From positions 23,797 to 87,796 of the forward strand of contig LBNX01000004.1 in assembly GCA_000989185.1 (NCBI GenBank): a stretch of 64,000 bases of DNA, written 5' to 3'. Below, piece by piece: positions 767 to 40,670 of this stretch. A program made the position numbers and the translations under genes. Under the pieces are notes generated by a model. That model worked only from the letters and a program-made list of their open reading frames with translations, had not been told where the DNA came from and did no database searches. Source of the DNA: a candidate division TM6 bacterium GW2011_GWF2_28_16. GTDB lineage: Bacteria; Babelota; Babeliae; Babelales; UASB340. The first letter of the stretch is position 1; each line of letters starts with the position of its first letter.

Positions 767-1645
767 TTAACGTGAGATAATTAACCAAATTATTAAAATA
801 ATTATTGGTATTGGCATATAATATGCAAATTTATATAATTTGCCAGATTCAGCAATTTGTTTAACTTTTTTGAAAATAAAATAAGAGATAATGCTAGCCC
901 AGCCTACGCACAAGGCTACGGCGGGCATGCTATAATTAGGTGAAATATAATAAATAAAGTTTTTATTTGTCATTATAATTTTATAAACCCCCAACAAAAA
1001 TCCAGCGCAAATAATTGGGAATTGTATTAAAAATGTTATTTCAAAATTTCTTTTTAAATTTTTATTTAATAAACTCGCAAAAAAGAATACTGCTGCAAAT
1101 CTTGATATACCTGGGATTAGTGCAAGCCCCTGCACAAGGCCAAGAAGGGCAAAATTTATCGCAATGTGATTATTCGCCAGGCGATAGCCTGGCTCTACCT
1201 CAATGCCGCCACGCCTTGCGGCGGGCTCAAATGCCAGCAATAAGCCTGTTATACAAAAGCCAGTGAGTAATAAAAAATTAGAATTATAAAAGCTTAAATT
1301 TGTGATATAAAATTTAAATAAAAGCCAGATTAAAACTGTTATGCTGTCAGCAATAAAAATAAGCGATATTATTTTAAAAAATATTTTATATAAATTTTTA
1401 TAAGAATCTTTTAAATATATTTTTTTATTAAGTATGCCTGATAATAATTTTTGTATAGGCCCCCACCAGTTTTTATAAAAAATTATTAATAATATAATTA
1501 TTGTTGGTAAGTGCAAAACGTAATCAAAATATTCTGGAATATTTATACCAAAAAGTTTTTCTGCTAATAAAAAATGGCCAGAGCTCGAGATTGGCAGTGA
1601 TTCTAATATTATTTGTATAAAAATAAATATGATAATATAAAACAT
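767..1645 (-). CDS. uppP: undecaprenyl-diphosphate phosphatase (BacA/UppP family)
   Basis: 292 aa polytopic membrane protein. N-terminal LPISSSGH matches the UppP LPxSSxGH motif, and GLALIPGISR matches the ALxPGxSRSG motif. Confidence 0.85.
   Translation of the reverse strand: MFYIIIFIFIQIILESLPISSSGHFLLAEKLFGINIPEYFDYVLHLPTIIILLIIFYKNWWGPIQKLLSGILNKKIYLKDSYKNLYKIFFKIISLIFIADSITVLIWLLFKFYITNLSFYNSNFLLLTGFCITGLLLAFEPAARRGGIEVEPGYRLANNHIAINFALLGLVQGLALIPGISRFAAVFFFASLLNKNLKRNFEITFLIQFPIICAGFLLGVYKIIMTNKNFIYYISPNYSMPAVALCVGWASIISYFIFKKVKQIAESGKLYKFAYYMPIPIIILIIWLIISR
1175..1228. repeat. GC-rich palindromic segment translated in frame within uppP
   Basis: 54 nt encoding EPAARRGGIEVEPGYRLA. Contains hairpin GCCAGGC-gata-GCCTGGC (1176-1193). 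Also contains GCCGCCACGCCTTGCGGCGGGC, which resembles the intergenic modules at 5291-5318 and 11891-11916. GC rises sharply here in an AT-rich gene. Confidence 0.5.
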
Positions 1646-1749: not shown

Positions 1750-1956
1750 ATGAAAAATTTCTTAGATGACTTGGCTCCAAATATTATAAAAAATAGTTCA
1801 GGACAAGAGATAGGTGTGTTTTTTGATATTAAAGATTATAATTTGCTTCTTGAGCATTTAGAAGAATTGTATTTGGGCAAAATTGCACAAAAAATTAAAA
1901 AAGAAGAAGGTGATAATTTAAAGAGCTTAGAAGATTTTGAAAAAGATCTTGATTAA
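1750..1956 (+). CDS. putative type II antitoxin (Phd/YefM-like)
   Basis: 68 aa acidic protein. Its stop lies 2 nt before a RelE/ParE-like remnant, which is the typical antitoxin-first arrangement. Confidence 0.5.
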   Translation: MKNFLDDLAPNIIKNSSGQEIGVFFDIKDYNLLLEHLEELYLGKIAQKIKKEEGDNLKSLEDFEKDLD

Positions 1957-1958
1957 AG

Positions 1959-2117
1959 ATGAGTAAAAATAGTTTATTTGGTTACAAAATATTTTTAACT
2001 AATAGAGCACAAAAAGAAATAAAAAAACTTACAAAGATAGATAGAGATAATGTATCTATAATTTTTGTTGGGCATAGAAAAAAAGTATATCAAGAATTTA
2101 AAAATATGTTTGGCTAA
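1959..2117 (+). pseudogene. internally deleted RelE/ParE-family toxin remnant
   Basis: 52-aa ORF not in the track: MSKNSLFGYKIFLTNRAQKEIKKLTKIDRDNVSIIFVGHRKKVYQEFKNMFG. It keeps the family N-terminus (Y-I-F-T..A.KEIKKL) and C-terminus (VSIIFVGHRKKVY). About 40 residues of the core are missing. Confidence 0.55.
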
Positions 2118-3237: not shown

Positions 3238-4761
3238 ATGAACAAACTGTTAAAAGGTTTACTTGTCACAGCTTTAGTTGTTGGCACCGTAAACGCAGAT
3301 ACAAACAAAACATTCTTAATGCCTAGATCAGCTGGCGTTAATCTTCCAATGGAATACACAACATTTAATGAATTAATTCAACATAAAAATGGCGACTTCT
3401 TTGGAGCTCATTTCCAAGTAGTTCCATTTTATATGGATTCAACAAATGGTTCTGATATAGGTAAGTATTTTGGTATTGCTGGCAAAAATACATTTGTAAT
3501 TGGTAACTCAACTTTAGTTACAGCAGGTACAGCTGATATGAATTATGGATATATAATTCATAATATAGCAACTGCAGCAACTGCTGGTGTTGCAACATTG
3601 AATTTTGATCCAGAACTACAAGCTTATGGTGCAAGAATTGATTATTATCAAGATTTAGAAAAAATTCTTGATGGTTTATATTTAAAAGTTGCATTACCTA
3701 TAGTTCACACTGAAACAAAGATAAATAGAACAGTTTCATCTGTTACAGCAAGTAACAATTTGACAGAAGCACACTTGAATGAATATTTTGCTGGTACTTA
3801 TTCTCAAGATATTGCAGATGCAAATGCTCAAGCAGTTCTTGAACATGCAAAAAGAGATGGTTCTCATTCAGAAACATCTGTTGCAGACATTGATGTAGTA
3901 TTAGGCTACAAGATTTGGGACAAAGAAAAATACTCTTTTGCATTAAATCTTGGCTTAACAATTCCTGTTGGCAATGATGCTGATGGAGATTGGGCATTTG
4001 AACCAATAGTCGGCAATGGCGATCATTGGGGCTTTGGTGGTGGCTTAGATGCAATGGTAAGACTTTGGAAGAAGAATGATCAAGATATTAAATTAACATT
4101 AGCAGCTAACTATAGATATTTATTCTCTGGTACAGAAAAGAGAACATTGGGCTTAAATGATGTTGATGGTGTAGAAGTTCCTTTTGGCCAATATTATTTA
4201 GCAGCAACAATTGGTGATATACGTAGAACTCAACAATTACAACCTGTTGCAAATCTTTTAACACAAGATGTTAAAGTAGAGACAGGCAGCCAATTGGATG
4301 CAGAGTTATATTTTACATATAACAATGGTGGCTGGAATGTAGAACTTGGCTATAACCTATTCTACAAAGATTCTGAAGATGTAAGTCTTAAGAATGCTTG
4401 GTCAGACGGAGTATATGGTATAGCATTTATAGATCAAACATTTGCTACTGGTGGTGATGGTACTTTCGTAGCATCTGCAGATGGTACTGCCGCTGTTGGT
4501 GCTAATGGTGGTTCTCGTGGTCTTATAAACAATACTCCAACAAATACAGCTTTAGGCCAAACAACCAGAGCTTATGGTATCAATACCCATGTCGCAGAAT
4601 CAGCATCACAATTTACAAACAAGATCTTTGGTGGCGTTGGATATATTTTCAGAGAATGGGAATATCCAATGATGCTAAACATCAGTGGTGCATATGAATT
4701 TGCTGATCGTGATGCAATTGAAAATTGGCAAATCTGGGGTAAGATTGGCGTTAAATTTTAA
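3238..4761 (+). CDS. secreted outer-membrane beta-barrel candidate, OMP family paralogue 1
   Basis: 507 aa with signal peptide MNKLLKGLLVTALVVGTVNA and a C-terminal ...WGKIGVKF ending in Phe. Clear paralogy with 6994-8571 and 13647-15074 (TNKT(F/Y)L..RS, DIGKYFG, LQP.AN.LTQ.VK..(T/P)GS.LD). SD GGGGAAAG upstream. Confidence 0.65.
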   Translation: MNKLLKGLLVTALVVGTVNADTNKTFLMPRSAGVNLPMEYTTFNELIQHKNGDFFGAHFQVVPFYMDSTNGSDIGKYFGIAGKNTFVIGNSTLVTAGTADMNYGYIIHNIATAATAGVATLNFDPELQAYGARIDYYQDLEKILDGLYLKVALPIVHTETKINRTVSSVTASNNLTEAHLNEYFAGTYSQDIADANAQAVLEHAKRDGSHSETSVADIDVVLGYKIWDKEKYSFALNLGLTIPVGNDADGDWAFEPIVGNGDHWGFGGGLDAMVRLWKKNDQDIKLTLAANYRYLFSGTEKRTLGLNDVDGVEVPFGQYYLAATIGDIRRTQQLQPVANLLTQDVKVETGSQLDAELYFTYNNGGWNVELGYNLFYKDSEDVSLKNAWSDGVYGIAFIDQTFATGGDGTFVASADGTAAVGANGGSRGLINNTPTNTALGQTTRAYGINTHVAESASQFTNKIFGGVGYIFREWEYPMMLNISGAYEFADRDAIENWQIWGKIGVKF

Positions 4762-4935: not shown

Positions 4936-5404
4936 TTTATTTCGTCTTTAGGGGACTTCATTTTGGAAGTCCCCTATAACCCCTGCAAACAAAAGAGTAA
5001 ACTCTTTTGAATCTCTTGACGCTTCAAATCGCACCCCTCCACCGTTGGTGGAACGGGTGTCTCGATGAAGCTAATAAAGTACTTTTTATAAATTGTAGCA
5101 TTATATCTAGTGTTTAATTTAAAGATCTCCATATTAGACTTACCTTGTCTGCCTGTCCGCCGTCCTGTCCATCGAAGCCTTGGCAAAGTTGGAAGCCTTG
5201 TGCAAAGGCTGGAAGTGCCTAATGACGTTAGTCAGGAGGCACGAGTTAAGTCGTAATAAAGGGTTTTAAAAGGGTCTTCCCTTTTGACCTGCCCGCCATA
5301 GCCTTGGCGACGGCTGGGTTTACAGGGGTTATAGGGGACCATTAAATACATCGATGCCCTTTAGGCGTTGAGATGAAATCATGGTCCCCTAAAGACGAAA
5401 TAAA
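4936..5404. mobile_element. 469-bp composite palindromic element bounded by perfect inverted repeats (MITE-like, no ORF)
   Basis: Outer IR is TTTATTTCGTCTTTAGGGGAC (4936-4956) against GTCCCCTAAAGACGAAATAAA (5384-5404), 21/21. Inner IR is GTCCCCTATAACCCCTG (4969-4985) against CAGGGGTTATAGGGGAC (5323-5339), 17/17. The interior carries module A (4986-5099), module B (5154-5212), module C (5258-5286) and a CGCCATAGCCTTGGCGACGGC module. Confidence 0.6.
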
Positions 5405-6926: not shown

Positions 6927-6958
6927 ATTAGATCACGGCTCGGCGGCCGGGATGACAT
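6927..6958 (-). repeat. F-type hairpin repeat (GC-stem subtype)
   Basis: The rc reads GTCATCCCGGC-cgccga-GCCGTGATCTAA, with one stem mismatch. Confidence 0.65.
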
Positions 6959-6993
6959 ACTGTGTGATAGTATTTTTAAAAGAAAGAGAGAGT

Positions 6994-8571
6994 ATGAACA
7001 AAATTTCAAAAAATTTTATATTTAAATTTTTATTATTTTTAAATTTATTTTTTATAAATAATATTTATTCGACAGAAACAAATAAAACTTATCTTTTATC
7101 AAGATCTACTGGTGTAAACTTATCAATGGAGTACACGACTTTTAATAATTTTGTAAATTACAGAGATGATAAGCGTGCCCGGGATAATAAAGACAATAGC
7201 TTTGGGGCGCATATACAAGCAACGCCATATTATTTAGAATCGAATAATGGCAAAGATATAGGTAAATATTTTGGTTTTGATGATAAAAATATTTTACGAA
7301 TAGCTAGAAATAATATTGCTGGTTATGATCTAGATTTTAGATATATGGTGCATGATAATGTAAATACAGCAAATACAAATGCAATTGTAAAACTTGATCC
7401 AAAGTTTGAATCGTATGGTTTGCGTCTTGATTATTATCAAAAATTAGAAAAATTTCTCGATGGTTTATATTTTAAAATAGCTATACCAATATCTTATGTT
7501 AAAACAGATGTGCGATTAAATATTGCTGATCAGGCTGGATATTTTGTTGCTGGAACAAACACAGATTTGTATAAATATTTTGATGGCACTTATAATTTAC
7601 CTGTAGGTAATGCCCGAGCTCAAGCTGCTCTTGAATATGCAAAAATTTCTCAACATAAATTTTCAAAGACAAGCGTTGCAGATTTAGATTTAGTTTTAGG
7701 TTGCAAGTTTATAGATAGAGATAAATACTATGCAATAATAAATTTTGCATTAACAATACCAACAAATAACGAAGCTGGTGCCGGATATATGTTTGATGTA
7801 AATGTTGGCAATGGTAGTTATTGGGCTTTGGGTGGTGGGCTCGAAGGTATGATGCGCTTGTTTGGAAAAACAAATGATCATAATTTAAATTTAGTTGCAG
7901 TTGCAAATTATAGATATTTATTCGAAGGCAGAGCTGAGCGAACTATGGGTTTATTAAATCCAGATGGTACACGTGCAAACTGGGGCCAATATTATTTGGT
8001 TGGCGAAATTGGTACAGCTGTAAGTACACAACAGTTACAGCCTGCTGCAAATGTTTTGACACAAAGAGTAAAACTTGCTCCGGGTAGCCAATTAGATTCT
8101 ATGATCTATTTAAATTATAAATATTCTGGATTTACAGCAGAATTAGGTTATAACTTTTTCTGGCGTGATGACGAACAAATTAGTTTAAAAAATGAATGGC
8201 AAAATAATGTTTATGGCGTAGCAATTTTAGATCAAGATATGACTATTGCTGGAGGCGCAACTTTTGCAAACACTGGTTTTGCAGCTACAGCTGTACCTGT
8301 TAACGGTGGCTCTATGGGATATATTAATAATGACCCAGATAACACAGCTTTTACTGCTGCAGGAACAGTTGCAACTAGAGCTTATGGTTTAGATGAAGGT
8401 GTAGGTGCTGCCAGTTCACAAAATACACACAAAATTTTTGCTGGTTTGGGTTATGGCTTTTATGATTTTAAATTTCCCTGCATGCTTGGCATCGGCGGAG
8501 CATATGAATTTAATGGCGATGATGGAATTGAAAATTGGCAAGTTTATGGCAAAGTGGGATTAAAGTTTTAA
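6994..8571 (+). CDS. secreted outer-membrane beta-barrel candidate, OMP family paralogue 2
   Basis: Start moved to the ATG at 6994, after AGAAAGAGAGAG. Has a signal peptide and a C-terminal ...YGKVGLKF. Collinear with paralogue 1 along its whole length. Confidence 0.65.
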   Translation: MNKISKNFIFKFLLFLNLFFINNIYSTETNKTYLLSRSTGVNLSMEYTTFNNFVNYRDDKRARDNKDNSFGAHIQATPYYLESNNGKDIGKYFGFDDKNILRIARNNIAGYDLDFRYMVHDNVNTANTNAIVKLDPKFESYGLRLDYYQKLEKFLDGLYFKIAIPISYVKTDVRLNIADQAGYFVAGTNTDLYKYFDGTYNLPVGNARAQAALEYAKISQHKFSKTSVADLDLVLGCKFIDRDKYYAIINFALTIPTNNEAGAGYMFDVNVGNGSYWALGGGLEGMMRLFGKTNDHNLNLVAVANYRYLFEGRAERTMGLLNPDGTRANWGQYYLVGEIGTAVSTQQLQPAANVLTQRVKLAPGSQLDSMIYLNYKYSGFTAELGYNFFWRDDEQISLKNEWQNNVYGVAILDQDMTIAGGATFANTGFAATAVPVNGGSMGYINNDPDNTAFTAAGTVATRAYGLDEGVGAASSQNTHKIFAGLGYGFYDFKFPCMLGIGGAYEFNGDDGIENWQVYGKVGLKF

Positions 8572-9989: not shown

Positions 9990-11129
9990 CTAGATTTTCC
10001 CAAAAAAATTATTAATACGATCAAGCCCTTCTATAAGAACTTCTGGATTACGTGCAAAACATAATCTTAAATAACTTTTGCCACTAGCACCAAAATATTT
10101 ACCGGCAATTAAGCCAACTTTTGCTTGGCGTAATATTTGTTCACTTAATACTTCTGCATCAGGATAATCTGTTTTTAAAAAAACAAAAAAACCGCCGGCA
10201 GGTTTTTGGTAGCTAAATATATTTTTGTTAACTAAATTTTGTAATTTGTTTTCAAGAATATTTAAATTATTTTTTACTATTAAACTAAATTCTTGTGTAA
10301 ATTCTGGATGATCAAGTGCAAATAATGCTGCATATTGTGATGGTACATTTGTGCAATTTAATAAAGCATCTTGCATTGCTCCAAGGGGAATATTTAAACT
10401 TTCGGGTATAACCATATAACCTACTCGCCAGCCAGACATGCCCATACTTTTTGAAAAAGTATTAACGTTTATAAAGTAATTACTTTCGTTAACAAATTTT
10501 GCACTAGAATTATAATTATTATTATAAATATAATCGCGATAAGCTTCGTCTATTATTAAATAAATTTTATTCTCTTCGCACCAGCTTAATAATTCTTTAA
10601 TAATATTTTCGGGAATTATAATACCCAAAGGGTTATTTGGGTTAGAAAATATTATAATTTTAGTTTTACTTGTAGTTGCTTGTTTTATTTTTTCTATGTT
10701 TAATTCCCATTTATTATCTTGTGCCATGCTAACAAACACAGCATTTGCTCGAGCGAGTTTTACAAGTTTTTCGTATGCAGGATAAGTTGGTTCTGGAATA
10801 ATAACTTCGTCACCAGCTTCTAGTAAAGTTAAAAATATAGTCGAAAGTGCACCTATAGCACCATGTGTGACTATAATATTATTTATATTTAAATTTATAT
10901 TATTATTTTCGCTAACAACTTGAGCTAATTTTTCACGTAATTTTAAAATTCCCCAAGCGCTTTGATAGTAATCGCTTTTATCTGTTTTTAAAACTTCTTG
11001 TATATAATTTTTGATTTGCTCTGGTATTCCACCAACTTTTAATGCACCCTGTGAAAGTGAAATATATTCGTTACTACTATTAACTATTGCTTCAACTTTT
11101 TTTATTCCAGATAATGGGATATTTAGCAT
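9990..11129 (-). CDS. PLP-dependent aminotransferase, class I/II
   Basis: 379 aa. NTFSKSMGMSGWRVGY matches the PLP-lysine motif (SKxxxxxGxRxG). Confidence 0.75.
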   Translation of the reverse strand: MLNIPLSGIKKVEAIVNSSNEYISLSQGALKVGGIPEQIKNYIQEVLKTDKSDYYQSAWGILKLREKLAQVVSENNNINLNINNIIVTHGAIGALSTIFLTLLEAGDEVIIPEPTYPAYEKLVKLARANAVFVSMAQDNKWELNIEKIKQATTSKTKIIIFSNPNNPLGIIIPENIIKELLSWCEENKIYLIIDEAYRDYIYNNNYNSSAKFVNESNYFINVNTFSKSMGMSGWRVGYMVIPESLNIPLGAMQDALLNCTNVPSQYAALFALDHPEFTQEFSLIVKNNLNILENKLQNLVNKNIFSYQKPAGGFFVFLKTDYPDAEVLSEQILRQAKVGLIAGKYFGASGKSYLRLCFARNPEVLIEGLDRINNFFGKI

Positions 11130-11132
11130 TTG

Positions 11133-11663
11133 TCATCCAGATACGTTAAGTAAAATTATAAATTCGTTATACGATAAATAAGACAAGATAAGAATACTAA
11201 ATAATATTAATATAAATCGCAAGATATAATGTAAATATTTATTATAGAAAAAATTTTGGTATCCAATTATAAATCTATAAAAGGTTGCAAATGCACTTAC
11301 TAAAAGCGCAATCCAGTATGGCCATGGGTTTGTTAAAATTACATAAAACATGTGATTTAACATTGAACAAAAATAAATATTTTCTAAAAAAATTACAGAG
11401 TAAATAGAAAATATTAAAGCCATTGGCCATGCGATTAATTCAGGGTATTTTAAAATTTTACCTGTAATAATTTTATAAGGTAACCCTAAAACTATTTTTC
11501 CATGAAATGCAGGTATGCACAAAACATAAAAAGCCCAAGTTACAAATGTAGATAAAATGGCTGTTTTAAGATTATGATTTGCATAAAAGCTAAAAAATAT
11601 AAAAGAAAAGTTTATTATTGGTATTAAGAATAACCATTTATTTGGCGCTTTATTTTTATTCAC
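11133..11663 (-). CDS. hypothetical polytopic membrane protein
   Basis: 176 aa with several hydrophobic helices and a GTG start. No recognisable motif. Confidence 0.5.
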   Translation of the reverse strand: MNKNKAPNKWLFLIPIINFSFIFFSFYANHNLKTAILSTFVTWAFYVLCIPAFHGKIVLGLPYKIITGKILKYPELIAWPMALIFSIYSVIFLENIYFCSMLNHMFYVILTNPWPYWIALLVSAFATFYRFIIGYQNFFYNKYLHYILRFILILFSILILSYLSYNEFIILLNVSG

Positions 11664-11675
11664 TTACTCTCCATG

Positions 11676-11912
11676 GTTTTTTGCCCAGGGCATTAGAAGC
11701 AAGTCGGTAGCATTCGCGTAGGCAAATTTGAAGCTATCTCAAATATAAAATATTTAAAATTATATTTTCTAGATAGCGTCAAAAAAAACAATATCAATTT
11801 CAGGTCCGCCTTCGTTAAAACTTCGGCGGGACAGCCTACGCAACTGTGCTATTAAAATCTTTTTAAATTATAATACCGGTACTGGCATGCCAGCCGTAGC
11901 CTTGGCGTAGGC
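11676..11912. repeat. GC-rich hairpin modules flanking the 3' side of tRNA-Ala
   Basis: TTTGCC...GGCAAA at 11680-11726. GTCCGCC...GGCGGGAC at 11804-11831. CAACTGTGCTA (11841-11851) differs by one base from TAACTGTGCTA at 732-742. CCAGCCGTAGCCTTGGCGTAGGCTGG (11890-11915) abuts and overlaps the tRNA 3' end. Confidence 0.6.
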
Positions 11913-11988
11913 TGGTGGAGCTAACCGGGGTCGAACCGGTGACCTCATGAATGCCATTCATGCGTTCTACCAACTGAACTATAGCCCC
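11913..11988 (-). tRNA. tRNA-Ala (anticodon GGC), CCA encoded
   Basis: The rc folds as a cloverleaf. Acceptor stem GGGGCTA/TAGCTCC carries the G3:U70 alanine identity pair. D arm is GTTC/GAAC. Anticodon stem CATGA/TCATG has loop ATGGCAT. T arm is ACCGG-TTCGACC-CCGGT, and the 3' end is ACCA. Confidence 0.9.
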
Positions 11989-12126: not shown

Positions 12127-13629
12127 ATGGAAAATTTATTTAAAATAATTAAAAAATTAAACCCAATATTAAAAGAAATAATAAATAATGGTTCTGTACC
12201 GTATCTTGTTGGTGGTAGCGTGCGAGATTTAGTTTTAAATTTAGAAACAAAAGATCTTGATATAGAAGTTCATAAAATATCTATAAAAGATTTAGAAAAA
12301 ATTTTAAAAAAATTTGGACATGTGCGTCTTGTTGGTCAAAAATTTGGTGTTTTAAAAATAGATGGAATAAACGTAGATTGGTCATTACCCAGAAAAGATA
12401 GTATTGGCAGAAAGCCAAAAGTTATAATAAAAAAAGATATTTCTATAAAAGATGCGCTTGTACGGCGTGATTTAACTATTAATGCAATGGCTATAGATTT
12501 GCGGGAGCTTTTAAAAAATAAAAATAATTTTAAAAAAATAATTATTGACCCATTTGGTGGCCTAAAAGATATTAAAAATAAAAAATTAAGAGTTATTGAT
12601 GCTAATTTTTTTGTTCAGGATCCTTTAAGATTATTTAGAGTTATGCAATTTGCAGCACGTTTTAATATGGCGCCAGATAAAAATTTAAATAATATTTGTA
12701 AAACTATGAGTTTGCAGGACCCAGCAACAGGAAAATTAATTTCGCGTGAACGAATTTTTGATGAAATTAAAAAATTATTATTAAAGAGTAAACAACCAAG
12801 TATTGGCTTTAGATGGCTATTAAAAATAAATAGATTAAAAGATATTTTTCCTGAAATTTATAATTTAATTGGTGTTAAACAGAAAAAAGAATATCATCCA
12901 GAGGGTGATGTGTTTGAGCACACTATGCAGTGTATAGATGTTGCTGCAAATCTTGATATTTATGAAACAGAAAACGAAAAATTCTTGATTATTTTAGCGC
13001 TTTTGTGTCACGATTTTGGCAAGCCAAAAGTTACAGATAAAAATTTATCAGCAATAGGGCACGAAAAAGAGGGCGTAGAAATTGCAAAAAAATTTTTAAA
13101 GCGAATTACGCGCGATAAAAATTTGATAAACTCTGTGTGCAAGTTGGTTTTGTATCACATGCAGCCAGCGCAATTATTAAAAAGTAATGCAAAAATTAGT
13201 GCATATAAAAGATTAGCTATAAAACTTGCCACAGATATAAACATGAAACAACTTGGCATTGTTTGGCTTGCGGATAATTTGGGACGGGTAGCGTATCGCT
13301 CGGGTAGACGCTTCGATACACCTCGCGTTGTTCGGCACTCAGCGCGAACGGGAAGTTTGAAAAAACACGCCGTGCAGGCTTTGTCATCCCGGGCAAGGAC
13401 CCGGGATCTAGAAAATAAAATAATAAGTGAGTTTAAACAATATTTAAAAATAATAAAAAATTTAAATATAGAAACAGGTCCGGAAAAGCCAATTTTACTT
13501 GGCCGTGATATTTTGGATAAAGTAAAACCAGGGCCTCAAATGGGTAAAATTTTAAAATGTGCTTATAAAATACAAATAGAGGAGGGTGTTAAAGATAAGG
13601 AGACGTTAAAGAAAAGAGTATTAAAGTAG
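12127..13629 (+). CDS. cca: CCA-adding enzyme / poly(A) polymerase family nucleotidyltransferase with HD domain
   Basis: N-terminal YLVGGSVRD...DLDIEV matches the class II nucleotidyltransferase GGxVRD...DxD motif. The HD-domain motif LLCHDFGK is present. Confidence 0.85.
   Translation: MENLFKIIKKLNPILKEIINNGSVPYLVGGSVRDLVLNLETKDLDIEVHKISIKDLEKILKKFGHVRLVGQKFGVLKIDGINVDWSLPRKDSIGRKPKVIIKKDISIKDALVRRDLTINAMAIDLRELLKNKNNFKKIIIDPFGGLKDIKNKKLRVIDANFFVQDPLRLFRVMQFAARFNMAPDKNLNNICKTMSLQDPATGKLISRERIFDEIKKLLLKSKQPSIGFRWLLKINRLKDIFPEIYNLIGVKQKKEYHPEGDVFEHTMQCIDVAANLDIYETENEKFLIILALLCHDFGKPKVTDKNLSAIGHEKEGVEIAKKFLKRITRDKNLINSVCKLVLYHMQPAQLLKSNAKISAYKRLAIKLATDINMKQLGIVWLADNLGRVAYRSGRRFDTPRVVRHSARTGSLKKHAVQALSSRARTRDLENKIISEFKQYLKIIKNLNIETGPEKPILLGRDILDKVKPGPQMGKILKCAYKIQIEEGVKDKETLKKRVLK
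13282..13413 (+). repeat. composite GC-rich palindromic element translated in frame within cca (ends in an F hairpin)
   Basis: 44 codons (about G386-E429, ...VAYRSGRRFDTPRVVRHSARTGSLKKHAVQALSSRARTRDLE). 13381-13413 is TTGTCATCCCGGG-caagga-CCCGGGATCTAGAA with a perfect stem. The 5' part shares CTCAG(C/G)GCGAACG(G/A)GA with 18462-18540. Confidence 0.75.
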
Positions 13630-17310: not shown

Positions 17311-17328
17311 AAAATCTTTAAATTTGAT

Positions 17329-17913
17329 TTATTTTTGTAGGCTTTTTACCCAATTTTTTGAATATTTTTTAGAAGCTCTACGCAAAATACCTAGTGTTTT
17401 TAGATATTTTATCATTCGTTCAATAACTTGAGCATCTTGGGCAGGATTGCCGGTAATATCTTTTTTGCCAAGACCTGAGTGTAAAAAATGTTCTGGAGCT
17501 TTATAGTTTTCTAACTTTTGAGCAAAAGTTAATTTAATTCCAAATGGATCTTTTACTGCAAAAGTTTTATATCCATAATTTTCATCTTTTAAAGATTGAA
17601 CAATCTGGACTCCTTTTTGTTCACATTTTTTAAAGTATTTTTCTAGTCCTTTTTTCATTTCTATAAAAATACCAACACTTCTGCTAGCACATCTTTTGAT
17701 AAAGCTAAATTCTGCTAGCTCTTCTATGTGAGGAGCTCTAAGCATTAAAAAGCATTTACCTTTGCGTAAATGTGCATATGTAATTTGTTCATCCTCACCA
17801 GGATTTTTTTCTGTTATTAGTTCTACTACATCAAAGGCTAATTTTTCAGTATAAAATTTTGTAGCCTTTTCTACAGATTCTACAACTAAAACAGTTGTTC
17901 CAGACTTCATCAT
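17329..17913 (-). CDS. VOC (glyoxalase/bleomycin-resistance) family protein with C-terminal extension
   Basis: 194 aa. The N-terminal 120 aa follow the beta-alpha-beta-beta-beta pattern (VVESVEKATKFYTEKLAFDV...YGYKTFAVKDPFGIKLTF). Assignment is by pattern only. Confidence 0.45.
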   Translation of the reverse strand: MMKSGTTVLVVESVEKATKFYTEKLAFDVVELITEKNPGEDEQITYAHLRKGKCFLMLRAPHIEELAEFSFIKRCASRSVGIFIEMKKGLEKYFKKCEQKGVQIVQSLKDENYGYKTFAVKDPFGIKLTFAQKLENYKAPEHFLHSGLGKKDITGNPAQDAQVIERMIKYLKTLGILRRASKKYSKNWVKSLQK

Positions 17914-38586: not shown

Positions 38587-38601
38587 TTGGGTATATTAAT
38601 T

Positions 38602-39474
38602 ATGTTTGAACGTACTATAAACAAAAAAATAGAATTTAGTGGTATTGGAGTTCATACAGGATTAAAGACTACTGTTGCTTTAGATCCTGCTCCAGCTGGG
38701 CACGGAATAGTTTTTGTAAATCCAAAATTTGCGCAAGAATGTATAAAATTGGGTACAGTAATTCCTGAAATTGCATTGCATGCATCTGTTTTAAAATCTA
38801 AGTCTTATATAATTAGTACAATAGAGCATTTAATGGCAGCTATTAATGCTTTTAAAATAGATAATATTTTAATAGAAATTTCTGGCATTGAAGTGCCTAT
38901 ATTAGATGGTAGTAGTATAAATTTTGTTAATTTGATTAATAATGCAGGCATAAAAGAGTTAGAAGCAAAAAAAACGTATTTAACTCCAGTAAAAACTTTA
39001 TATTTTAAAGATGAAAAAAGTGATAGAGAAATTATTATTGAGCCTGCTAATTTCGATAAAGAAACAAATAGTTTTGATACAAATTTATATTTTGATTATT
39101 TTGCTGAATTTGAGCATGCATTGGTTGGCAAAAGTTCTATTGTGGGCGAATTTAATATAGATTTTTTTGAGCACGAAATAGCTCCAGCTAGAACATTTGG
39201 ATTTTTAGAGCAGTTACCATATTTAAGAAGCAAAGGCTTGGCCAAAGGTACATCTTTGGGAAATACTGTTGTAATTGGCGAAGATGAATATCTAAATGAG
39301 CCTAGATTTGAAAATGAATTTGTACGGCATAAATTATTAGACTTATTGGGTGATATTGGTTTGCTTGGTAAAAATTTAGCTGGAAAAATAGTTGCAAAAA
39401 AGACAGGTCATAGTTTTAATAGGCTTGTTGTTCAAGATTATATAAATAACCCAGAGAACTGGAAGTTGATATAA
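38602..39474 (+). CDS. lpxC: UDP-3-O-acyl-N-acetylglucosamine deacetylase
   Basis: Start at the ATG at 38602 (MFERTINKKIEFSGIGVHTG). EFVRHKLLDLLGD is the LpxC signature. Confidence 0.9.
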   Translation: MFERTINKKIEFSGIGVHTGLKTTVALDPAPAGHGIVFVNPKFAQECIKLGTVIPEIALHASVLKSKSYIISTIEHLMAAINAFKIDNILIEISGIEVPILDGSSINFVNLINNAGIKELEAKKTYLTPVKTLYFKDEKSDREIIIEPANFDKETNSFDTNLYFDYFAEFEHALVGKSSIVGEFNIDFFEHEIAPARTFGFLEQLPYLRSKGLAKGTSLGNTVVIGEDEYLNEPRFENEFVRHKLLDLLGDIGLLGKNLAGKIVAKKTGHSFNRLVVQDYINNPENWKLI

Positions 39475-39482
39475 AAAATGTG

Positions 39483-39543
39483 GTAGCCCAGCGATGTCCG
39501 TCGAAGCCTGTGGCGAAGACTGGATGCGCAAGCGCTGGGCTAC
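39483..39543. repeat. GC-rich clamp hairpin containing a module B-like core, between convergent lpxC and rseP
   Basis: GTAGCCCAGCG (39483-39493) pairs with CGCTGGGCTAC (39533-39543), 11/11. The interior TGTCCGTCGAAGCCTGTGGCGAAGACTGGATGC resembles module B TGTCCATCGAAGCCTTGGCGAAGTTGGAAGC. Confidence 0.65.
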
Positions 39544-39560
39544 ATGATAACTTATATTAG

Positions 39561-40670
39561 CTATTTAACAAAAATATTTAAAATATCTTTATAAGTTAAG
39601 TATAAAATTAAACTTAATAACAAAACCCAAGATGCAATATTGATCGAAGCTTTTATAATTTCTGGAATTTCACGTCTTATTACAGCTTCTATGCCAGCAA
39701 ATAAAAGTTGGCCGCCATCAAGTGCGCCTAATGGTAATATATTAATTATTGCTAAATTTATACTTATAAAAGCTAAAAATAATAATAATGGTATAAAACC
39801 CTTTTGAGCTGTCTCAAATGTTTTTGAAAGTATCATGATTGGGCCGCCGGCACCACTTAGGCTTTTTGATTTTATTAAGTAAATTATGCCCATGAACATT
39901 TGTTTGATCCAGTTATTGGTTGTCTCGATGCCTTTAATTACAGAATCTATTAAATTATACTTTTCGAATTCTCCTGGAATATCTTGTGATTTAAGTTCTA
40001 ATAATTTTAAAATATTTTCACTTGATTCTTTATCTTGTGAAGATACTGTTATATTTATATTTTTATTATCTCTTAAAATTACAAGTTGAATAGAATCTTT
40101 TTGTAATTTATTAAGTGGAATAATTAACTGTTCTTTAAGTATTTTAAGTGCATTATTTGGCTCAGGGCTTAATTCCTGATTATTTATAGATATAATTTGG
40201 TCTTTTGCCTGTAAATTAAATGTTTGGGCTATTTGGGAGTATTTTTTTTGTTCTGTGATTAATATAGTTACAGATTTTTTTGGTATACCAACAAAAAATA
40301 AGCTTGAATATACTATATATGCAAATAATAGGTTAAAAACAACGCCACCAGTTAAAACAAAAAACTTTTGCCAAAATGGTTTTTGAGCAAAAGAGCCTTC
40401 ACCTGTTAAGGTTGCCATTTTTTGCTCGCCCTGACCAACTTCAGAAAGCCCTGCAATTTCTACATATCCGCCAATTGGTATTAAAGATAGCCTAAAATTA
40501 GTTTGACCTATCTTGCGTTCTAGAATTTTGGGGCCCATTCCAATAGAAAATGTTGGTGTATTAATATTAAATATTTTACAAAATATAAAGTGTCCAAATT
40601 CATGTACTGTTATTAATAGACCAAAGCCGATAAGTGCGTATAATAATGCGAATACATTGTTTGTTATCAT
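39561..40670 (-). CDS. rseP: RIP metalloprotease RseP (M50 site-2 protease)
   Basis: 369 aa with HEFGHF in TM1, a central PDZ-like region, and a C-terminal LPLGALDGG motif. Confidence 0.85.
   Translation of the reverse strand: MITNNVFALLYALIGFGLLITVHEFGHFIFCKIFNINTPTFSIGMGPKILERKIGQTNFRLSLIPIGGYVEIAGLSEVGQGEQKMATLTGEGSFAQKPFWQKFFVLTGGVVFNLLFAYIVYSSLFFVGIPKKSVTILITEQKKYSQIAQTFNLQAKDQIISINNQELSPEPNNALKILKEQLIIPLNKLQKDSIQLVILRDNKNINITVSSQDKESSENILKLLELKSQDIPGEFEKYNLIDSVIKGIETTNNWIKQMFMGIIYLIKSKSLSGAGGPIMILSKTFETAQKGFIPLLLFLAFISINLAIINILPLGALDGGQLLFAGIEAVIRREIPEIIKASINIASWVLLLSLILYLTYKDILNIFVK

Follow-up and report, generated by a model that had tools for sequence, protein, structure and literature searches.

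A GC-rich, hairpin-bearing block in frame within the uppP gene of a candidate division TM6 (Dependentiae) bacterium: a candidate relic of selfish hairpin DNA

The uppP locus

The DNA analysed here (hereafter the window) is a stretch of 64 000 nt (64 kb) from contig LBNX01000004.1 of candidate division TM6 (Dependentiae) bacterium GW2011_GWF2_28_16, with a GC content of 29.7%. Near its beginning lies the open reading frame (ORF) of uppP (bacA), in which a short run of GC-rich codons, referred to below as block E, is the subject of this report; a second segment of the same gene, block D, will also be considered. The features of the locus are listed in Table 1. The uppP ORF is intact and contains every invariant residue of the family; its product matches the UppP/BacA family (PF02673) over its full length, with both catalytic motifs (ESLPISSSGH and PGISR) intact, and is 100% identical to the undecaprenyl-diphosphatase of bacterium GW2011_GWF2_28_16. 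The gene is nucleotide-identical in an ENA assembly and in a Logan assembly that derives from a different sequencing run. Because uppP is the same in two independent assemblies, block E is not an assembly artefact.

In the structure of Escherichia coli BacA the N-repeat comprises residues 1–150 and the C-repeat residues 151–273, both termini are periplasmic, the linker between helix H5 and re-entrant helix h6 lies at the junction of the two repeats, and loop L6-7 spans L168–R174 (PMC5852022). HMMER places the region of block E on residues ~141–160 of this protein (5OON), where the E. coli loop is 4 residues shorter, and the conserved QGLALIPGISR segment begins 14 codons downstream of the block. 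Block E would thus sit on the cytoplasmic side, opposite the periplasm-facing active site, in the H5-h6 linker that connects the two repeats of inverted topology. An AlphaFold2 (AF2) model made from homologue alignment A1 is weak only at residues 147–159 (within or just after block E) and 231–240 (just before block D): the mean predicted local distance difference test score (pLDDT) is 57 for residues 151–160, falls below 50 for residues 154–157 and averages 60 for residues 231–240. Within block E the model has a short helix (140–146) followed by the low-confidence coil of 147–159. An apparent match between YRLA of block E and YRQA of the E. coli protein was discarded as a coincidence, because the two are displaced by 8 residues against each other when counted from the G..Q anchor.

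Table 1. Features of the uppP locus, module copies in the window and IS200-end modules in related or adjoining loci
Feature	Position	Strand	Basis or description
uppP (bacA) ORF, undecaprenyl-diphosphatase, 292 aa	767..1645	minus	Pfam PF02673, E=7e-30; AF2 mean pLDDT 90
Block D, peptide SMPAVALCVGWAS, residues 239-251; module copy, core 897-926	891..933	minus	30/32 identity, profile
QGLALIPGISR, residues 172-182; end of re-entrant helix h6 and L6-7 catalytic loop	1100..1132	minus	Q172, G179, S181, R182 invariant; aligned to E. coli QCLALWPGFSR
Block E, 18 in-frame GC-rich codons, peptide EPAARRGGIEVEPGYRLA, residues 140-157	1175..1228	minus	translation; outlier in third-position GC (GC3) and codons
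Hairpin 1, GCCAGGC-GATA-GCCTGGC, perfect 7-bp stem, 4-nt loop	1176..1193	.	sequence; hairpin count in 64 kb
GTAG, one base 5' of hairpin 1 on the coding strand; REP-like 'GTAG + palindrome' layout (weak, suggestive)	1195..1198	minus	sequence
Hairpin 2, mRNA strand, GCCCGCC-GCAA-GGCG(U)GGC, 7-bp stem, one bulge, GCAA tetraloop	1208..1226	minus	minimum-free-energy structure
Module copy, intergenic	5285..5317	minus	profile E=2.2e-9
Module copy; first bases are the CCA end of tRNA-Ala(GGC) 11913-11988(-)	11888..11919	minus	profile E=7.7e-10
IS200-end modules, L123 (nearest relative)	11009-11068, 11099-11154, 11620-11679		inverted flanking pair and third copy
IS200-end-related inverted pair, source genome, just upstream of the window	L124:12734-12792, 12975-13034		profile
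IS200-end-related inverted pair	L122:17237-17289, 17327-17376		profile

Composition and hairpins of block E

The coding strand of block E reads GAG CCC GCC GCA AGG CGT GGC GGC ATT GAG GTA GAG CCA GGC TAT CGC CTG GCG. Along the gene it forms a sharp GC peak, reaching 0.70 at positions 1175–1224 (50-nt window) compared with 0.28 for the gene and 0.297 for the whole 64 kb. GC3 is only 16.8% over the 18 317 codons of the window, and just 39 of ~17 600 windows of 12 codons contain eight or more GC-ending codons, block E and a second patch in uppP being among them (top 0.2%). When 16 971 windows of 18 codons were ranked by synonymous-codon likelihood, residues 140–157 were the second most atypical; ranks 1 and 3 both fall in a GC island of a CCA-adding-enzyme ORF. 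The rare codons are concentrated at the two hairpins (CCC 2.6%, GCC 8%, AGG 3%, CGC 5%, CTG 1% and GCG 5%), and both ends of the block are alien by codon usage.

Perfect GC-rich hairpins of at least 7 bp occur only three times in the whole window. Two of the three, hairpin 1 and the one in the CCA-enzyme island, are inside GC-rich in-frame patches of coding genes. Given the composition of block E, a 7-bp hairpin is mildly unusual (P = 0.042, dinucleotide shuffles). The anomaly is therefore one of alien composition, without evidence of selection for structure. The initial annotation had described an 18-codon GC-rich block with a perfect 7-bp hairpin just upstream of the ALIPGISR motif, facing a loop of similar length in E. 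coli UppP, and on all these points our analysis agrees with it. Block E is alien in composition, bears hairpins and is in frame in an intact essential enzyme, and it is presumably translated.

One could suppose that the loop is native and that its GC-richness and hairpins are kept by selection, either for the peptide or for an mRNA structure that slows the ribosome after H5 emerges. Two stable hairpins on the mRNA strand, three arginines that suit the positive-inside rule for a cytoplasmic loop, and the identity of the block in two samples would fit such a view. However, the same peptide needs only ~43% GC with the codons preferred by this genome, whereas 70% is observed with codons used at frequencies of 1–8%; the peptide is unconserved in all 78 homologues; the fold is no stabler than that of shuffles (z = −1.5); and AF2 gives the region low confidence. 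We therefore consider a selected native loop improbable.

Short direct repeats were noticed at both GC-rich segments of the gene: GAGCC flanks the first 33 nt of block E and TAGCAT flanks block D. Both would be possible target-site duplications, but they are short and confounded by palindromic elements, and were not relied on. The former repeat also raises the question of whether the ribosome hops from GAG(E140) to GAG(E151), skipping 33 nt, so that part of block E is left untranslated. Identical GAG CC(C/A) strings flank these 33 nt, the supposed gap contains a hairpin, the take-off site is followed by rare codons, and the product (LLLAFEPGYRLA) would have a 27-residue loop, in the normal range. 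Nevertheless, the gap is in frame and stop-free, neither a stop nor a shift follows the take-off codon, nothing requires a hop, and a 5-nt direct repeat is weak evidence; we regard such a hop as extremely improbable.

As a separate observation, the GC-rich island mentioned above (…VAYRSGRRFDTPRVVRHSARTGSLKKHAVQALSSRARTRD…) is in frame over 137 nt at 13278–13414 in ORF 12127–13629 (+), which belongs to the CCA-adding-enzyme/poly(A)-polymerase family. It holds the perfect hairpin ATCCCGGG-CAAGGA-CCCGGGAT and lies between the HD domain and a weak, below-cut-off Pfam match to the C-terminal tRNA_NucTran2_2 domain. The PDB alignments of this ORF end before the island, which is probably another translated repeat insertion.

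Block E and the module family

The initial annotation had also proposed that block E resembles two modules of the window, at 5293–5313 and 11890–11915. These belong to a family with the pattern CCAGCC NN CGC (N) CAAGGCTA N GGC (the AGCCTTGGCG modules of that annotation), which occurs three times in the window where zero occurrences are expected. A profile hidden Markov model was built from 121 copies of the family from many phyla and searched with nhmmer; it recovers all three window copies (E = 8e-10 to 8.5e-8). The two modules are truly related to each other.

The third match to the pattern falls inside uppP at 899–922 and is block D. It is 30/32 identical to the copy adjacent to tRNA-Ala (11885–11915; BLAST E = 2e-6), and the profile scores it with E = 8.5e-8 in the search of the window and E = 1.2e-9 in the search of the gene only. 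Relative to the tRNA-Ala copy it has one extra T, which removes a would-be in-frame TAG, and it is modelled as the N-terminus of helix 240–266 (AF2). On the strength of these alignments uppP does hold a repeat copy that is, as predicted from the frame, translated, 250 nt from the flagged block; it was missed by the initial annotation.

Block E itself behaves differently. The string that had been compared with the modules, GCCGCCACGCCTTGCGGCGGGC (1205–1226), is overlapped by hairpin 2, and CCGCCA-(C)-GCCTTG-..-GGCGG can be aligned with CCGCCATAGCCTTGGCGACGG at ~63–75% identity if gaps are allowed. The block could accordingly be viewed as a diverged copy of the family, all the more as variants with CCGCC/GGCGG stems and variable centres are known, uppP has a true copy (block D) at a distance of 250 nt, and homologue P0010 and, by peptide alone (GFAKATPDK), P0040 have family-like modules in this UppP loop. 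However, BLAST of block E gave nothing beyond 11-mers, and the local-alignment scores against the three modules were reached by 5–35% of dinucleotide shuffles each (17% for the best of three). The profile misses block E, yet it scores block D at 1e-9 and even weakly matches unrelated GC-rich bits. Block E is a short GC-rich hairpin in an AT-rich context, as the modules are, but this property is generic and does not discriminate. The similarity is thus not significant in a proper alignment, that part of the earlier proposal falls, and descent of block E from this family seems unlikely to us.

Two broader searches were also made. Rfam, at gathering and at permissive thresholds, returned nothing for block D, block E or the modules. 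A metagenome scan for GCCAGGC-N3-6-GCCTGGC-N6-16-GCCGCC gave matches that, among those listed, are due to chance and come nearly all from loci of 50–80% GC; the source contig is absent among the matches listed.

The module family extends far beyond the window. Its ~30-nt consensus is CCAGCCTTCGCCAAGGCTACGGCtGGCAgGCc, and the pattern, with 20 specified bases, was found at no fewer than 119 loci of the genome collection. Those among the matches listed belong to Verrucomicrobiota, Acidobacteriota, candidate phyla radiation (CPR) lineages, Dependentiae, Nitrospira and others, with multiple copies in several genomes, and in AT-rich genomes most copies are intergenic. Among the matches listed, 9 of 121 copies begin exactly with the CCA that ends a tRNA or tmRNA gene, as does the tRNA-Ala copy of the window. 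The module corresponds to no Rfam family and no match to it was found in a literature search. Because the viral collection yielded only 3 matches, phages are no obvious vehicle.

Loop lengths and loop inserts in relatives

The length of the loop was measured as the number of residues between invariant T133 and Q172 in the ~55 homologues that have both anchors. It is 38 residues here and 26–33 (mode 29–31) in most homologues. Removal of the 18 codons of block E would leave 20 residues, shorter than in any relative. Where Dependentiae orthologues have a Lys-rich stretch after H5 (LKSLNKK, LKKDFKKE, LKFKENN), this protein lacks it and has AARRGG instead. Since 18 added codons would imply a native loop that is too short, replacement fits better than pure addition, and we infer, as had been suggested initially, that replacement of native loop codons is more likely than simple addition. 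Judged from these alignments, either block E displaced ~6–13 native codons or the new DNA is confined to part of it (e.g. its first 33 nt, which GAGCC flanks). As for the mechanism, the block may have been inserted and native codons then deleted, or it may be a repair patch copied from a template elsewhere.

The peptide of block E is conserved in none of 78 homologues. Besides this gene, 10 of the ~55 measured homologues, most or all of them from Dependentiae, have the loop expanded to 39–141 residues. In the four expanded homologues whose DNA was examined, the extra residues are encoded by patches of at least 55% GC in genes of 32–44% GC, and in nucleotide sequence all of these inserts are unrelated to block E. 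P0010 carries CAGCCTTCGCATAAAGCTTCGGCG, a module-family variant, in the same loop; because its profile score is weak (E = 0.33), the identification was made by eye. The peptide GFAKATPDK at this place in P0040 is what the module typically encodes (peptide only), and in P0008 a family-like module lies in another loop (E = 0.002, gene-only search). Synteny with the window is preserved in the nearest relative, L123, which has its own, different inserts. The H5-h6 linker of UppP is a hot spot for independent GC-rich inserts.

The homologues also bear on whether block E could be a short patch acquired by recombination with a GC-rich uppP homologue. BLASTP places EPGYR in register, counted from Q172, with EPGER, IPGER and PPGDR of the GC-rich homologues P0067, P0078 and P0077, in which AFEP recurs as well. 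But the agreement covers only 4–5 residues, and GC-rich DNA specifies P, G, E and R in any case. Moreover, the native flanks are AT-rich right up to block E, the most conserved neighbouring segment (QGLALIPGISR) has no sign of conversion, and 54 nt lacking flanking homology is an unlikely product of recombination, which makes this origin very improbable in our estimation.

IS200/IS605-end modules

Beside its uppP orthologue, L123 has a gene for an IS200/IS605-type Y1 transposase (TnpA; 11166–11543, minus strand; PF01797, E = 1e-27), to which NCBIfam NF033573 gives 83 bits and the RAYT model 29 bits, below the cut-off of the latter. This gene is flanked by inverted 52-nt GC-rich modules that bear GTAG, are 96% identical and contain GGTAGCCC. 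The third L123 copy of the module (Table 1) supplies the last ten codons of that uppP. In the window and L124 (9 kb of the source genome upstream of it; 73 kb together), tblastn detected no Y1_Tnp.

Block E has a layout like that of the IS200-end modules (hairpin, spacer, GTAG on the coding strand, hairpin), and the arrangement of GTAG plus palindrome is also found at the modules 899–922, 39483–39543 and L124:12975–13034. As far as these sequences go, the likeness is a resemblance and not a demonstrated membership. Two candidate relationships were tried and rejected. By eye, a three-way likeness AGCCCGC...TTGAGGTAG...GGCG with the same 53-nt length was apparent, but its score is 20, and even the overall best score, 23, is attained by 59% of shuffles. 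Similarly, block E and L124:12976–13006 have AGCCCG...TTGAGGTAG in common and agree in 25 of 33 columns, which is not significant.

Two further GC-rich segments may be recorded in this context. One (722–774) overlaps the last uppP codons and the stop, extends just downstream, contains the palindrome GCTAGC-GGCAG-GCTAGC and has a weak match to the IS200-end profile (E = 1.9). The other is a 70-nt GC-rich palindrome, GTAGCCCAGCG...CGCTGGGCTAC, with GTAG/CTAC heads, at 39478–39547 between the convergent genes 38587–39474 (+) and 39561–40670 (−); it resembles a REP and may also serve as a terminator.

Origin of block E

Taken together, we think it reasonably likely, if far from certain, that block E is a relic of GC-rich DNA with hairpins of the repetitive extragenic palindrome (REP) or IS200-end type, which took the place of some of the native linker and now persists as a tolerated, disordered loop. 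A mobile or templated origin is thereby suggested: the source would be a mini-element resembling a REP or an IS200/IS605 end, or a repair patch templated by one. Such selfish hairpin DNA would have arrived in the UppP linker between H5 and h6 in an event that kept the reading frame and added no stop codon, and, at once or via a later deletion, ~6–13 native codons (the Lys-rich stretch after H5) would have been displaced. The ribosome would then read block E as a largely disordered linker of 18 residues, in which three arginines replace the lost lysines, and the block would persist since the linker tolerates almost any sequence, not through usefulness.

A selfish origin is supported because the same gene carries a module insertion identified by alignment and profile (block D), and because Dependentiae relatives have TnpA and GTAG modules beside uppP, with modules related to these in the source genome just outside the window. 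That block E is a tolerated relic is supported because the same loop of other homologues holds unrelated GC-rich patches.

Several results weigh against this origin. The profile of the 52-nt IS200-end module has no match to block E, and the profile of the ~30-nt module has none at E ≤ 100 in the 64-kb window or at E ≤ 50 in the 879-nt gene alone. No second copy of the block was detected in 73 kb of its own genome, where the best local alignment (score 23) is matched by 59% of shuffles, and BLAST against ~0.9 Mb of fetched loci gave no match; on these searches block E is an apparent orphan. Its fold energy compared with shuffles is not exceptional (z = −1.5 for the mRNA strand and −2.0 for the plus strand). 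Among the homologues found, the nearest of which are 46–50% identical, there is no orthologue with an empty site. Finally, the net growth of the loop is only 5–9 residues; because of this, simple insertion is insufficient and a second step has to be assumed.

A broader reading, which we put forward tentatively and hold to be somewhat less than an even bet, is that Dependentiae harbour an undescribed system resembling the Rickettsia palindromic elements (RPEs), in which several families of GC-rich hairpin mini-elements would time and again invade tolerant loops of essential genes without loss of frame. For them the UppP linker between H5 and h6 would be a hot spot, and block E a decayed or orphan member that overwrote the basic linker. 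As part of this joint reading, some of the families would be related to IS200/IS605 ends and one would be the ~30-nt cross-phylum module, ~8% of whose copies start at the CCA end of a tRNA or tmRNA. If block E is such an overwriting member, this would imply integration in a replacement mode (a templated patch), not simple insertion.

Other repeats and neighbouring genes

A long intergenic repeat of ~140–200 nt, with copies 87–95% identical, is present at 504–700, 2207–2420, 4988–5093 and 2459–2530 (inverted), and at L124 16439–16495. Its core is the hairpin GCTTCAAATCGCACC..CCACC-loop-GGTGG..GGTGTCTCGATGAAGC, with what seems to be compensatory variation between copies. The five copies cluster near uppP, and the repeat may be a structured RNA or a miniature inverted-repeat transposable element (MITE). 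In addition, a 60-nt GC-rich module occurs twice, inverted and 92% complementary (2640–2699 and 5154–5213); it has two AGCCTTG-type half-motifs and a weak match to the profile of the ~30-nt module.

Two small ORFs adjoin uppP (1750–1956, plus strand, 68 aa; 1959–2117, plus strand, 52 aa) in a toxin–antitoxin-like arrangement, and both are gene calls in independent assemblies too. Further along the window, paralogous proteins that have no Pfam domain are encoded at 3238–4761 (+; 507 aa) and 6952–8571 (+; 539 aa). Their family has more than 237 homologues, apparently mostly from Dependentiae/Babeliales. The 507-aa protein is syntenic with uppP in L123 (69% identity), and the paralogue search made with it returned only orthologues in other Dependentiae.

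Comparison with known systems

We found no description of such elements for Dependentiae in a literature search that covered only part of the literature. The phenomenon as such is already known from RPEs and from the GC clusters of mitochondria. RPEs, reportedly described by Ogata et al. in 2000, are pure insertions of 100–150 bp that form recognisable multi-copy families and are not known outside Rickettsia. The literature on RPEs includes PMC1166351 and PMC10969869. The likeness lies in hairpin-forming DNA in an AT-rich intracellular bacterium, in frame in protein genes, translated, and located at surface or loop sites that spare the fold. Block E is likewise in frame in an intact gene at a structurally tolerant site, but it does not belong to a multi-copy Rickettsia family of ~100–150 bp: it has 54 nt and no second copy detected, it seems to displace native codons, and its host belongs to Dependentiae.

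With REPs and the REPIN-RAYT system, IS200/IS605 ends and MITE derivatives (PATEs), block E may have in common a short GC-rich imperfect palindrome preceded by GTAG. These REP-type palindromes have 20–40 nt and a GTAG/CTAC head; in block E the GTAG, a suggestive 4-mer, stands one base from the 18-nt perfect palindrome 1176–1193. REPs are extragenic, occur in high copy number and have a cognate Y1 transposase, whereas block E is an intragenic orphan, as far as the searches reach, present as a single copy with no Y1_Tnp in 73 kb.

Mitochondria of Allomyces contain double-hairpin elements (DHEs). The GC clusters of yeast mitochondria are GC-rich modules in a very AT-rich genome (PMC4478555). Both resemble block E as GC-rich (double-)hairpin modules of 30–60 nt that form sharp GC spikes and are occasionally found in coding sequence (var1), but they are organellar and multi-copy, with defined families and target sites. 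Translational bypass is known for the byps of Magnusiomyces capitatus mitochondria and for the gap of T4 gene 60 (PMC5009743; 10.1101/2022.08.31.505936). Byps are GC-rich hairpin inserts of 27–55 nt in essential genes of an AT-rich genome, flanked by matching codons. Such inserts disrupt the frame or contain stops, and the ribosome has to skip them; block E, in contrast, breaks no frame, contains no stop and has the matched GAG codons only. Because it is open and in frame, ordinary read-through suffices.

Significance

Block E alone is modest and largely explained; the cross-phylum module is the more interesting lead. On the practical side, patches of this kind lengthen and distort the alignments of proteins from metagenome-assembled genomes and the annotation of their loops. 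If the interpretation is true, one essential membrane enzyme with two alien GC-rich segments would be a compact natural experiment, in which a repeat copy (block D) now forms the start of a transmembrane helix and an orphan double hairpin (block E) resides in the inter-repeat linker. The H5-h6 linker of UppP would then be freely engineerable, and 'selfish DNA inside proteins' would extend from Rickettsia to Dependentiae, which are also intracellular parasites of protists.

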